Source: Botryllus schlosseri (taxonomy: Eukaryota). From it: a DNA stretch of 64,000 nt. Position 1 is the first letter of the stretch. Each line of letters starts with the position of its first letter. Location: positions 39,682,001 to 39,746,000 of the forward strand of contig CM119371.1 in NCBI GenBank assembly GCA_051294905.1. Direction: 5' to 3'. The translations under genes were made by a program, and so were the position numbers. Below are positions 40,781 through 45,614 of this stretch, piece after piece. The notes beneath the pieces were generated by a model. That model did not search any database. It was not told the DNA's origin and worked only from the letters and a program-made list of their open reading frames with translations.

Positions 40781-41123
40781 TTGAGTGACTTTCTCCTCAC
40801 GCGAACACCAATTTTGGCGCGCAGATTTCATACTGCAGACAGACAAAGCGCTCTCATAATGGCGGCTTGCAGATAGTTGTCGGTTTGGCTTTAGTCGCGT
40901 TCAGGGATTAATCAGTCATTTGAGGCTCGACCAAGCATATTTCTATAGAGGAATACCGAAAACTGCTCTGTGCATGTTCATTTATATATGTTTCATATAA
41001 AACATTATGTATTATTTAATATCATCGCGTGGTGGCCGCTCACATTCGTTATTCTTCATTGGGATTAAAGGTTTTTGTAGTTCTGTCTCTAATAGTGCAG
41101 TGACTGCTCGGCGAGACGTGATA

Positions 41124-42895
41124 ATGTCCGTATATGAAATCGAACAGAGGAAGGAAAGACGAAAGCGATACCAAAAAGAGTGGGTACGAACCAAGCGAGC
41201 TAGAATTGCCGACTTTAAGAGACAGAACGATTCATCATCGTCAAGTGATGTCAACACCTACTCCGAAGACCCGAGTAGCAGTGGTGACGACTGTATGCCT
41301 GAACCTTCAGCTATGTCTCACCGTTTACACGATGATTATTTGGACACGCCTGCGTCTAACGAAGTAAAGTCACCCGAGTTAGATGATATGACCCGCGATT
41401 CTGAGGATGACGATGCTGAGCTTAAGATTGAAACATTTAAGACTGGACTGGCTCATTGGGTTTCTGTCTGCAATGTTACGCAGAGTGCAACGGATATGCT
41501 GTTACGATTCTTACGAGAAAAGGGATCTAATATTGATTTGAAACAACTTCCTGCAACGGCTAGATGCTTACAGAAAACAGCAAGACAAATTGCCCTGAGA
41601 GAAATTTCACAGATGCAGTATTATTATCTTGGTTTGGCCGTGGAATTAGATAAAATAATGAAGACCTATGCAATATCTGAAGTCGAAAATATTTGCAACC
41701 TTGAATTGTCCATGAATATTGATGGTTTACCAATCTTCAAGAGCTTAAAAAGTAGTTTATGGCCGATATTGCTTTGCATTGACAACTTAGAACCCCAAAA
41801 AGTATTTCCTGTTGCTCTAGCTTATGGGGAGTCGAAGCCGCAAAACCTTGACTTTATGCAGGATACAATCGATGACCTTAAAATATTATTACGGGATGGT
41901 TTCTATTTTGGTAACAAGACATACTCTGTTACATTAAAATGTATTATTGCAGATGCCCCAGCTTGTGCTATGATAAAACAAATCAAGCAATTCTCTGGTT
42001 ATTCATCTTGCGGAAAGTGTACCATTAGGGGTATCTATATCAGTAATCGAATGACATTTGCCAATTCTGCTCATTGCGAATTGCGAAGTAATTTATCATT
42101 TCGCAATCAAGCTGATCCAGAACACCATGTGGGCTTTACGCCTTTTTGCCAACTCCCTATTGACATGGTAGATGTGTTTGTAATCGACTATATGCATTCG
42201 GTCTGCCTAGGTGTCATGAAAAGGCTGTTAAAATGGTGGACTTCCAATAAAGGTCCAAGGAGTGCTCGCCTTTCATCAGGTCAAATCGCGTTAGTGAACG
42301 CCAGACTATTAAATTTGAAGAGCTGTGTTCCAAAGATATTTGTACGCAAGCCTCGGTCCCTTTCAGAGCTAGATCGCTTCAAAGCTACTGAGTTTCGAAT
42401 GTTCATTTTGTATTTTGGCAAAATTGTGCTCAAAGGAATTTTGAGGGAAGATTTATACATTCATTTTTTAACACCAAGTGTTGCAGTTTGTATTCTTGTG
42501 TCTACTCATGTTACTAATGAATTAGCAGACTTTGCAGACAAGCTTCTCCAATCCTTTGTTCAAAAGAGTAGTGCGCTTTATGGCCAAGAATTTGTTGTGT
42601 ATAATGTCCACAGCTTACTACATTTATCGAAAGATGCTGTCAGATTTGGCGGCCTTGATAAATGTTCTGCATTCAAATTTGAGAACTACATGCAATCATT
42701 TTTGCGGAAAGTTCGATCCTAGGCAAAAGTCCATTATGCCAGATTGTAAAAAGGCACAGTGAAACTGTGCTAATGGAGTGTGTGGACTCTGCCAGTAAGG
42801 GAAAGGACCTGCCAGTGGCAGTGGAAAGACCGAACAATGCATATATCCTTAAAAATATGTCATGTTTTGAAATTTTGAAAGTTAATATAGGATAT
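41124..42895 (+). pseudogene. EnSpm/CACTA transposase (long ORF to 42722, then frameshifted tail)
   Basis: Motifs NIDGLPIFKS, LWPIL, ADAPACA, CGKC, DYMHSVCLGV, KATEFR, YNVHSLLHL and SAFKFENY. Continues GKSPLCQIVKR in another frame after an extra TA. Confidence 0.88.
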
Positions 42896-44390
42896 ATTTT
42901 CAATCAAAGCTATTGTGAACTGCATATCGATATAGTTCAAGATCTTTCCACTTGTTCACTTTGTAGTATTCTTCAGTCGTCATTTCCATGAATTCATCTC
43001 ACAATAGCCATTGCACACGAACCAGAAATTCTATATACCTTCTGTCATTATTTATATACGTAGCAAACTCTATAAAGGATCAAAGCCACAATATCACATC
43101 AATCTCGTGAGAAATGTAACATAGGCTACACGGTAATATTCACTAGTCATAACGACTCGCCACCGCTACCTAAATGTTGAGCTGTCCAACTAAATCCGAC
43201 GCAACTTCAAGAAATACACGACGAATCGCCTTGCACGCCATATAAAGAAGCGCTGAGCGATCTTGTTTTGGGTGCAGCCTTCTGACCGTGACCATTCTGC
43301 CGGCTAACAATGGGAGAACAATCGAGTCGTCACTCCAGTCATACTCTATAGTTGCACATTGCTATTGCCGCGACGTCGCCGCTCGGCCGCATCCTTGCTC
43401 TTGAGCTAGTCTCTCGTTTCGCCAGACAGCATTGTTGCGTCACACTGCCAATCGACTCGACAATGAATAATTTGGGGCTGATTGTGGGGGTTCCAGGGCC
43501 ATGAGTGGAATAAACTTTATATTTTCGCAAGCAGTACAGCGTCAGCTTTCGATTGATACCCGATTCATCAAATTTAATGCTCGGCAAGTCGGTCAAAAAT
43601 CACCGTCAAATTGCCTGTAGCCAAATGGAAACTGTGACGTGATACAATTTCATTGAACCGTGCGATTTGCTTGTGTCGACACCATATAGGACACTATGGT
43701 GAGACCATTTCTGGTCTATGAGATAAGCTTTGCTAGTGTGACGTCATATTGACAGACAATGTGCTCATACCTCATTTTGAAAGCCACTAGTGGGCGCTGA
43801 AGAGTGTCCGGAATTTGGATCACAGAAATATGGTAACCCTAGGCTACCGCCAGATCACGACTACACGACTACATCAAAGGAAGCGTATAAATATACCAAC
43901 TCGTCGTTAGCGGCACTGTTTTATCGTTTCTTAACTGTATTCAACGGGCCAATCATCGTATTTTTGTCGATTGCATTGTTCCCGAAGAAGGGTATTGCGA
44001 CTTTCAAGAACAAAACCCTTATGAGGTATGTATTATTATCTCTACATCTGCTTGATAATAAAGTATTGAAGTGAAAAGGCTACGCACGATGTAACATTTT
44101 GAAATATGTTGGCTGGTCCGGCCCGCGGGAGATTTGAAGGATTGAATTCGGCTTGCGACCCAATTTGAGTTTGACACTCCTGGCCTACGAGCTTTGTACA
44201 TTTTGAAAACTTTTGCTTCATTTTTTTTTGCAAAAAACGTGGTTATAATATAGTTTGCGTCAAATCATTGGGCATGCCATGAAAAATCATCTCGCTGGGG
44301 TTTGCCGACCCCTGAAGTAGACACTTCGCCCCTATTATGACAACGTATTAGGTGGAAGACCATCACACTCACCTTGACTCGTGGAGCTTG

Positions 44391-45195
44391 TGTAGCAGCC
44401 CTGCTTGCTACTGCCGCAGGTGACCAATATTATCGTTGTCACGCATGCTGTACCGTACTCGCTCTCTTTCGTGCTGGACTGTCTCGGCGAGCGGACTGTC
44501 TGCCGCTCGTCCGAGGTGTTGACGTGTATGCGCCGGTTTGTGTTACGTTGCTGGAATAAACACTTGCCTGTATCGTGAACAAAGGCCTCTACAGTGGCGA
44601 GCACGCCAGGACCACGGTACGGGTAGTGTGTTGTTGAAGATGGATTGGATTTCGGCCATGACATGAAGAGAGATACATTTTTGGAGGAGTGCTTTGCTAT
44701 GCTGGTTGAAGACTACTCGAACCACTTTGTTTTGCATGGACTGTGTTATCGGCGGAACTTTTGTATGTGTGTGCGTGTGTTGCAGTTCTTCGCCTGTAAG
44801 GATGGGATTGACGGGTCCTCCCTGTAAGGATGGGATGGACGGGTCCTCCCTGTAAGGATGGGATGGACGGGTCGGTTTTTTGTGGGTGTCCCTGTAAGGA
44901 TGGGATCGATGGATGTTGCAGTTGCTGAACGAGATATCGTGATATGGTGTTGGCAATCTGTATTAAGGTTCTGTGTTGCAGTCCTGTGGGTATAGGTGAA
45001 CTTGTTTGATGTCTTGCCGATTGTGATGTTACTGCTTTTTGAACGTGTTTCTCGGATGTATTGGATTGTGTGAGAGTGCCTGTTCGGGCACTTCTCAAGT
45101 TTAGGGAGATGTGATGTAGCAGCCCTGCTTGCTACTGCCGCAGGTGACCAATATTATCGTTGTCACCTGCGGCAGTAGCAAGCAGGGCTGCTACA
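44391..45195 (+). mobile_element. Miniature non-coding LTR retroelement (TRIM-like) with folded-back 3' LTR
   Basis: 5' LTR 44391-44593 (TG...CA, contains AATAAA). Primer-binding site (PBS) TGGCGAGCACGCCAGGA at 44595, tRNA-Arg-like. Purine tract before the 3' LTR start at 45115. TSD CTTG. Confidence 0.85.
44793..44906. repeat. Tandem repeat CCTGTAAGGATGGGAT(G/T)GACGGGTC (~28-bp period)
   Basis: Three adjacent copies plus one partial copy inside the LTR element. Confidence 0.85.
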
Positions 45196-45538
45196 CTTGC
45201 CTCTCCCTTAGCACTGGCAATGTTGTACACATTAGTCTGATTTCCGGACACGACGTTAACCAGGCTCTTTGTCAAATTAAGATTGACATTTTCTCCTTCG
45301 GCCAAAGTTGCGGATCCTAAGATACACGATATTATTGTATGCTAGTGAGGTTCCATACATATAGCCATATCATATAATAATGAGTAGGCTATATTCTATG
45401 TTTGATTTTCGGATCCATTCGGCATCTTATTTACACAACGAGCAAAATGTCCTATATTTAAATAACTTGAGCAACTGTTTTATATGAATAATACGAATTT
45501 TAAGTAATCTGAGCTCTAATACTACAGATATTACTTAC

Positions 45539-45614
45539 CGCTTGTGCCGGCTGACAGCGATGCAGGCATGGCACCAGCGATACCAGAATTGCGATCTTGA
45601 CCCCCTTCTGCCAT
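45539..45614 (-). CDS. First coding exon of gene A (MAEGGQDRNSGIAGAMPASLSAGTS)
   Basis: ACAATGG start context, GTAAGT donor, phase 1 matching exon 2. Confidence 0.75.

Follow-up and report, generated by a model that had tools for sequence, protein, structure and literature searches.

A small LTR retrotransposon of Botryllus schlosseri with a folded-back 3' long terminal repeat next to an intact target site duplication

How does a retrotransposon, whose family carries two direct long terminal repeats (LTRs), come to lie in a chromosome with inverted ends? This question is raised by a locus of Botryllus schlosseri. The window, i.e. the whole stretch of DNA that was analysed, is 64,000 nt long. 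Its positions 44391–45195 hold an 805-bp element, which is a young copy of a family of small non-coding LTR retrotransposons. The 3' LTR of this copy begins in normal orientation, turns back on itself after 52 nt and ends as an inverted copy of its own first bases, where it adjoins the target site duplication CTTG. With modest confidence, the fold is ascribed here to a snap-back of the plus strand during reverse transcription, after which integrase used the resulting pseudo-end, a second copy of the tip of the unique 3' region (U3).

The left part of the element is that of an ordinary LTR retrotransposon. A complete 5' LTR of 203 bp (TGTAG...CTACA; 44391–44593, plus strand) was delimited by reading the sequence and by end-to-end alignment with 15 family LTRs, and contains AATAAA at 44555–44560. 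One spacer base separates it from the primer binding site TGGCGAGCACGCCAGGAC (44595–44612, plus strand), the complement of the 3' end of tRNA-Arg(ACG) with its CCA. The interior (44594–45114, plus strand, 521 bp) was defined by repeat comparison and includes a 28-bp tandem repeat in four copies (44793–44918). It is non-coding; none of the six open reading frames tested in it has a Pfam match at E ≤ 0.01. Directly 5' of the 3' LTR lies the purine-rich tract AGGGAGATGTGA (45103–45114, plus strand), in which 10 of 12 bases are purines. These parts had been described in an earlier reading made from the sequence only (a 203-bp 5' LTR, a primer binding site, a non-coding interior of ~520 bp and a purine tract), and all of them were recovered base for base.

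The right end is abnormal. Positions 45115–45166 (plus strand) are LTR nt 1–52 in normal orientation, with 100% identity to 44391–44442. Self-comparison identifies the following 45167–45195 (plus strand) as the reverse complement of LTR nt 1–29. LTR nt 53–203 are absent here and the folded-back copy stands in their place, so that the normal LTR terminus (...GGCCTCTACA) is missing on this side. The turn lies at a micro-inverted repeat of the LTR itself, composed of GTGAC at 45144–45148 (LTR nt 30–34) and GTCAC at 45162–45166 (LTR nt 48–52) with a 13-nt loop between them. A hairpin of 81 nt results, the arms of which (45115–45148 and 45162–45195, 34 nt each) are 100% complementary, and the whole element is bounded by perfect terminal inverted repeats of 34 bp. 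The sequence-only reading had claimed exactly this geometry, and self-comparison reproduces it. Folding with DNA parameters yields −47.3 kcal/mol for the folded end; the 81 nt with which a normal LTR begins give −8.7 kcal/mol and the bare 5-bp micro-hairpin gives −2.5 kcal/mol. The folded right end is far above chance expectation. The two normal tips of the LTR also resemble each other, with 8 of 10 bases alike between TGTAGCAGCC and the reverse complement of the right tip, TGTAGAGGCC.

Measured against the two direct LTRs of its relatives, the element differs in having one full 5' LTR and a 3' LTR composed of nt 1–52 followed by inverted nt 29–1. It is a defective LTR retrotransposon, a member by descent rather than by structure. 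A search of the hairpin (45117–45193) against Rfam returned several microRNA-precursor models on both strands, all under their gathering scores. The highest score belongs to mir-252 (43.1 bits, gathering score 45) and is nearly equal on the other strand. This likeness is generic for any perfect hairpin.

Whether the folded end is the actual end of the insertion was judged from paralogues of the host sequence. The element is flanked by CTTG on the left (44387–44390) and on the right (45196–45199), and lies within a repeated, exon-like unit. The left half of this host unit (44308–44390, minus strand) was recognized by homology to paralogues and the right half (45196–45341, minus strand) by an open frame that is kept in them, with 40 scored matches for the right flank. 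Seven loci, corresponding to six distinct paralogous places, were compared with both flanks and five of them were aligned. In five of the six places the site is uninterrupted, with a single CTTG (TTTG in one) in the context ...GACTCGTGG(G)ACTTGCTTCTCC..., and the left and right flanks match the paralogues with an overlap of exactly 4 nt. At the sixth place (C1:40.57 Mb), which is uninformative, ~450 bp separate the halves. The insert therefore comprises exactly 44391–45195 with a 4-bp duplication, and the folded end is accordingly a true insertion boundary. Thus the earlier statement that the normal right LTR end is absent while CTTG is intact on both sides is supported by five empty paralogous sites.

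The host unit itself has at least 40 matches in the genome, many of them on contig C1, and its translation is conserved among the paralogues (...GSATLAEGENVNLNLTKSLVNVVSGNQTNVYNI...). The motif ACTCAC at 44367–44372 is kept in all five aligned paralogues and, judged from its sequence, is a putative GTGAGT splice donor on the minus strand. The element interrupts the conserved minus-strand open frame 18 nt before this conserved GTGAGT. No Pfam family was found for the frame and no protein-atlas match at 0.9 or more.

A search of the genome (495 Mb, 219 contigs) for relatives established the family. Seventeen of the 30 returned loci were compared with the element. Four relatives have two direct LTRs: a copy of 1034 bp on C9 (pair identity 96.2%), one of 811 bp on C8 (79.7%), one of 2208 bp on C2 (91.0%) and one of 2934 bp on C4 (91.4%). 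The primer-site motif after the 5' LTR is exact in the C9 copy and has 1–3 base changes in the other three. Purine tracts of the GAGAGGTGA type occur at the matching position in family relatives, and solo LTRs of the family are found on C7 and C1. Six family insertions have both flanks in view, four of them with two LTRs and two solo, and each is bordered by a 4-bp duplication (AATG, TTGT, ATAC, ATAT, CTGT and CTGT). Direct and solo LTRs, 4-bp duplications and a tRNA primer site all agree with the earlier assignment to LTR retroelements rather than DNA transposons.

The primer site of the element is a perfect 18-nt complement to the 3' end of tRNA-Arg(ACG) of this genome with CCA added, as had been proposed for a tRNA-Arg. 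A pattern of the tRNA 3' end that includes the T-loop has 13 matches in the genome (0 for the control). ARAGORN reports a tRNA-Arg in all five scanned loci of this pattern and one gene was read directly at L058:2194-2267. The primer-site pattern has 110 genomic matches (1 for the control). No ARAGORN tRNA gene was found at the 10 of these 110 matches that were scanned (13 loci in all), and the 110 places are therefore presumably retroelement primer sites.

An autonomous partner had also been predicted, and one candidate was found. It is a full-length element at L062:3456-8750 (minus strand; contig C16, also L029), identified by its common LTR end and primer site. A CTAC duplication flanks it, and its two LTRs, of 157 bp each, are 100% identical. 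Open frames for gag, protease, reverse transcriptase, RNase H and the integrase zinc domain are present, with the integrase core and C-terminus in another frame; the integrase is of the DDE type. As judged from its open frames, the gene order is that of Ty3/gypsy elements. It agrees with the small element at 11 of the 12 nt that open the LTR, in the final 23 nt of the LTR and in the primer site, and has a similar purine tract, GGGAGGGTGA. The prediction is supported as far as LTR tips, primer site and purine tract are concerned. The candidate is a plausible source of enzymes for the small family.

Several kinds of mobile elements have inverted terminal repeats or inverted LTRs at their boundaries, as does the element described here. 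Foldback elements have long, subrepeat-rich inverted ends, which are not seen in this copy. Miniature inverted-repeat transposable elements (MITEs) form many copies with the same ends, a requirement at odds with a fold junction that matches once genome-wide. DIRS elements have inverted LTRs, use a tyrosine recombinase and produce no target duplication. Here a target duplication is present, the LTRs of the family are direct and the integrase of the candidate partner is of the DDE type.

The closest known kind is the terminal-repeat retrotransposon in miniature (TRIM), a small LTR element without genes of its own. LTRs of ~200 bp, a tRNA primer site, a purine tract, the lack of coding capacity and short target duplications all correspond to TRIMs, as do the size of the family members (0.8–2.9 kb) and their presumed mobilization by an autonomous element, here the Ty3/gypsy candidate. 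This copy differs from TRIMs in its 3' LTR of 52 nt plus inverted nt 1–29, which gives it two U3 tips and leaves it without the repeat (R) and unique 5' (U5) regions on the right. An animal example of small non-autonomous LTR retrotransposons of the TRIM type is described in the part of PMC4558846 considered here.

The fold is confined to the locus in the window. A pattern spanning the fold junction has exactly one match in the 495-Mb genome, and ten further matches with three mismatches are reverse complements of ordinary LTR starts. Likewise, a search for LTR starts of either family, small or partner, that have their own reverse complement no more than 150 nt further on found this locus only. 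The fold is therefore a single event that was not amplified, and no family trait. Among the 15 other family LTRs that were aligned, 5 carry the GTCAC half of the micro-inverted repeat, and all of these belong to the subfamily of the element. The turn sits at the sole short inverted repeat available. The sequence-only reading had proposed that normal and folded copies be counted, and the count is clear: the relatives are ordinary two-LTR or solo copies and the folded form occupies one locus. Its further idea of a route from LTR elements to MITE-like or hairpin-RNA loci found no support, with the junction occurring once in 495 Mb, R and U5 absent and no reads showing transcription of the hairpin.

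The lineage of the element was followed in public contigs from six runs. They were placed on the window at 90% likeness (X1, X5, X6 and X7) or 97% likeness (X1, X2, X3 and X6). One X7 contig covers 45012–45166 without any difference and then continues into a normal LTR. In X5, which carries another species label, a contig represents an LTR-plus-interior unit closed on itself, with two differences. These contigs join the same interior to a normal LTR, which implies that a source copy, nearly identical but with a normal 3' LTR, exists or once existed. The depth of X7, possibly an RNA run, is very high over the element. One contig of this run, for which the label 'RNA?' is a guess, ends in poly(A) at 44583, 23 nt past AATAAA. 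This end would place the R/U5 border there, and a poly(A) site near 44583 is probable.

Within the assembly this lineage is represented by the copy in the window and a fragment on C5 that is 99% identical to it, whereas the other genomic copies of the family are older (LTR pairs 80–96% identical). The lineage is young and apparently expressed, and seems recently active and common to the species labels. The C5 fragment (L002:1501-1850, minus strand; C5:23711177-23711526) begins near nt 375 of the interior, reaches LTR nt 28 and there gives way to unrelated DNA. Its end is one base before the stretch that was copied in the fold-back. The fragment could be a captured piece of cDNA or the remnant of a deletion.

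The orientation of the loop tells which strand turned. On the top strand the loop reads as in a normal LTR and the palindrome runs toward LTR nt 1; therefore the plus-sense strand made the turn. A nascent strand of plus sense extended as far as nt 52, its GTCAC paired with GTGAC (nt 30–34), and the strand then copied nt 29 to 1. Three other origins were considered and discarded. A snap-back of the minus strand would lengthen the palindrome toward R and U5, not toward nt 1. If snapped-back DNA had served as the 5' end of the minus strand, the loop would be reversed on the top strand, but it is normal. A fold already present in the RNA template is contradicted by the 5' LTR, which is copied from the same U3 and is normal.

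The following course is proposed. Plus-strand DNA, primed at the purine tract, would copy LTR nt 1–52. Its 3' GTCAC would then pair with GTGAC (nt 30–34) on the same strand, and reverse transcriptase would copy back to the 5' end of that strand. The product would be a 34-bp duplex that resembles a U3 terminus with CA-3'OH. This pseudo-end may be paired by the integrase of the partner element with the genuine left U3 end, and both would be joined to the target at a 4-bp stagger. Gap repair by the host would copy through the hairpin and trim the displaced minus-strand flap that holds R and U5. In the meantime the hairpin may be held to the rest of the cDNA by the RNA primer of the purine tract, or may be rejoined to it via its 52-nt identity with the right LTR.

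The extent of the inverted copy finds its explanation in this course. LTR nt 1 is the 5' end of the plus strand primed at the purine tract, and for this reason the copy stops there. Run-off on the strand's own 5' end is the favoured explanation, as it accounts for the stop at nt 1 without a second coincidence. Furthermore, 4-bp duplications are found in the family, at the partner and around this insert, and thus the folded end sits where an end joined by integrase should. The kind of element is known, and so is snap-back by reverse transcriptases and repair polymerases.

Both halves of the proposal have partial precedents. In HIV-1, minus-strand strong-stop DNA is self-primed by a hairpin and extended by reverse transcriptase, as described in the part of PMC6088434 referred to here. 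This self-priming at cTAR, the DNA complement of the trans-activation response element, is similar in that nascent DNA folds at a short hairpin near its 3' end and is extended along itself. The HIV-1 reaction in that account concerns the minus strand, takes place in vitro and leads to a dead-end product, whereas in the proposal the plus strand turned and the product was integrated. According to the relevant part of PMC2939329, Ty1 integrase inserts foreign fragments that merely end in TG...CA, and target duplications are made. Proper terminal dinucleotides thus suffice for insertion with a duplication of the usual length, which is the property required here. The experiments in that source rest on overexpression in yeast with PCR fragments; a natural product in a different kind of organism is proposed for the present case. 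Additionally, the part of PMC11054761 on concerted integration describes assays run with one kind of LTR-end oligonucleotide.

Overall, the earlier proposal of a snap-back in reverse transcription followed by integration of a DNA with two U3 ends stands in part. The folded end is confirmed as the boundary of the insertion, but an event that altered the element once it was integrated would yield a sequence no different from this one. The more specific statement, that plus-strand DNA primed itself within the particle to make the second U3 terminus and that integrase joined two U3 ends to the chromosome, has about an even chance of being correct.

Several observations weigh against an origin before integration. 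The fold is a single case, so recurrence is unusable as an argument. Searches of the open-licence literature brought up no description of an LTR element in a chromosome whose 3' LTR is folded back while its duplication is intact. How the hairpin stays attached to the cDNA, and that this integrase accepts it, are assumptions of the proposal. The reverse complement of LTR nt 1–5 is CTACA, which is also the normal end of the LTR, and a change after integration would thus leave an identical sequence. Finally, no contig of the six runs bridges 45166/45167 or 45195/45196, and two DNA samples with the same species label are without matches of at least 97% to 45197–45228.

The most serious alternative is that the element was integrated as a normal copy with two LTRs, and that its 3' LTR was rebuilt later, when a break was mended through a snap-back or when replication switched templates. 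It is a genuine possibility, if clearly a less probable one. In this course 29 nt were copied, the strand re-annealed at the CTACA of the LTR end, and nt 53–198 were deleted with the duplication kept. Snap-back priming at hairpins near breaks, followed by microhomology pairing across the break, is described for Drosophila in the parts of PMC5728401, PMC2943611 and PMC9303309 that deal with it, and for vertebrates the corresponding parts of PMC7954356 and 10.1101/2023.04.19.537475 describe template switches in replication by which a perfect hairpin arises in a single step. The locus resembles the products of synthesis-dependent end joining through microhomology (SD-MMEJ) and of template switching in its snap-back at a short inverted repeat, its templated inverted insert and a perfect hairpin made in one event. 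Microhomology of 5 nt is present at both junctions (GTCAC and CTACA), and the orientation of the loop agrees with a snap-back of the top strand.

What such cellular processes do not provide is a reason to halt at the end of an LTR, yet LTR nt 1 is precisely where the inverted copy finishes, beside the duplication. The copying must stop at precisely this base and the strand must return at precisely the last 5 nt of the LTR. If no more than 29 nt are copied, the remaining LTR offers a single return site of at least 5 nt, CTACA; the 300-nt flank has seven more of at least 5 nt, and the LTR has 14 sites of 4 nt. If the extension may be as long as 60 nt and the return may fall in the LTR or the 300-nt flank, there are 22 alternatives of at least 5 nt and many more of 4 nt. 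The cost of this coincidence is roughly 1/10 to 1/20, too small to dismiss a later rebuilding of the 3' LTR. Such a rebuilding also needs a net loss of 122 bp together with a templated insert of 29 nt in a very young copy; the 52-nt overlap of the two LTRs has no differences and the hairpin arms are perfect. No allele with a complete 3' LTR was seen at the site, but the site is uncovered in the runs examined.

Alternatively, integrase could have joined the U3 end of a full-length cDNA to one side of the target and that of a second cDNA molecule to the other, with the host fusing these molecules at GTCAC or within the 52-nt overlap. The right junction is a U3 tip that ends in CA and adjoins the 4-bp duplication, and the internal joint has 5 nt of microhomology. 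In vitro, concerted integration can take two separate donors of one kind, at least as described in part of PMC11054761. This course implies the loss of nearly all of the second molecule, of which only 34 nt would survive, and needs extra coincidences. Its joint lies exactly at the local micro-inverted repeat, a position that local snap-back explains directly. The involvement of two donors is thus quite improbable.

An artefact of assembly or library is similarly doubtful; here a chimeric read or a consensus error would have made the hairpin, and a normal 3' LTR or some other structure would be present at the real locus. Neither junction is reproduced by the public contigs, and the flanks have zero depth at 44324–44377 (at least 90% likeness, four runs) and 45197–45228 (at least 97%, four runs). 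In the best DNA run, of ~50-fold depth, a fraction of only 0.55 of the sampled words is present. The X6 joint described below may likewise be taken to show that the locus varies between samples. A fold-back chimera, on the other hand, would run on in inverted orientation. It would not come back to the proper flank and leave a 4-bp duplication that is exact and agrees with five empty paralogous sites. The arms are perfect and the turn is at a pre-existing 5-bp inverted repeat. Moreover, de Bruijn contigs built from words of 31 letters resolve such palindromes poorly, which makes their silence weak as evidence. The public contigs neither confirm nor refute the hairpin; theirs is a silence rather than a contradiction.

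The locus seems to differ between individuals, and the haplotype of the assembly is not reproduced in the contigs. X1 matches 44000–44210 and 45301–45600 exactly. One X6 contig joins 44294 to 45195 at a likeness of at least 90%, with 20 letters on the shorter side. This joint would leave out the element together with the host unit's left half, and may represent an allele or a paralogue. Among the contigs placed on the window there is no read evidence for transcription of the hairpin.

That the element is an ordinary DNA transposon or MITE with terminal inverted repeats and a coincidental likeness to LTRs is hardly credible: the 34-bp perfect inverted repeats and the short target duplication are as expected for such an element, but all other family members examined with ends in view have direct LTRs or are solo and never show inverted ends, the inverted-end form was found once in the genome, the 18-nt tRNA-Arg primer site is perfect, a poly(A) end lies inside the LTR, and the Ty3/gypsy candidate has the same tips, primer site and purine tract.

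Other features of the window lie outside the element. Two short adjoining high-copy repeats are located at 44090–44187 and 44183–44295, with more than 1600 genome candidates at first look. They are MITE-like or SINE-like (short interspersed nuclear element), and other copies run past 44295 with GTGCCACAAATGGCAC.... On the plus strand, 41001–42722 is an open frame of 573 residues with a weak match to Transposase_21 (tnp2) of 19.1 bits, below the cut-off of 28.6.

With neither R nor U5 nor a poly(A) signal at its right end, the copy is predicted to be unable to transpose again and to be dead as a retroelement. What the locus means depends on when the fold was made. If it followed integration, the locus would be a clean instance of known biology, namely of snap-back repair that took place in nature at an inverted repeat of 5 bp. 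If it preceded integration, the locus would be an in vivo record of plus-strand self-priming by reverse transcriptase, otherwise known mainly from test tubes. It would then also indicate that integrase can complete a concerted, duplication-making insertion with two ends of the same kind, one of them borne by a hairpin; the copy would be a natural fossil of an LTR-retrotransposon integrase accepting a hairpin-borne pseudo-end. A retroelement may thus gain perfect terminal inverted repeats in one step, and such a copy resembles a DNA transposon and can mislead annotation. If transcribed, the perfect 34-bp stem could be a substrate for small-RNA pathways. Snap-back insertions, if the proposal is true, would give rise to loci that bear a hairpin and have inverted repeats at their borders, and hairpin-RNA genes could grow out of them.

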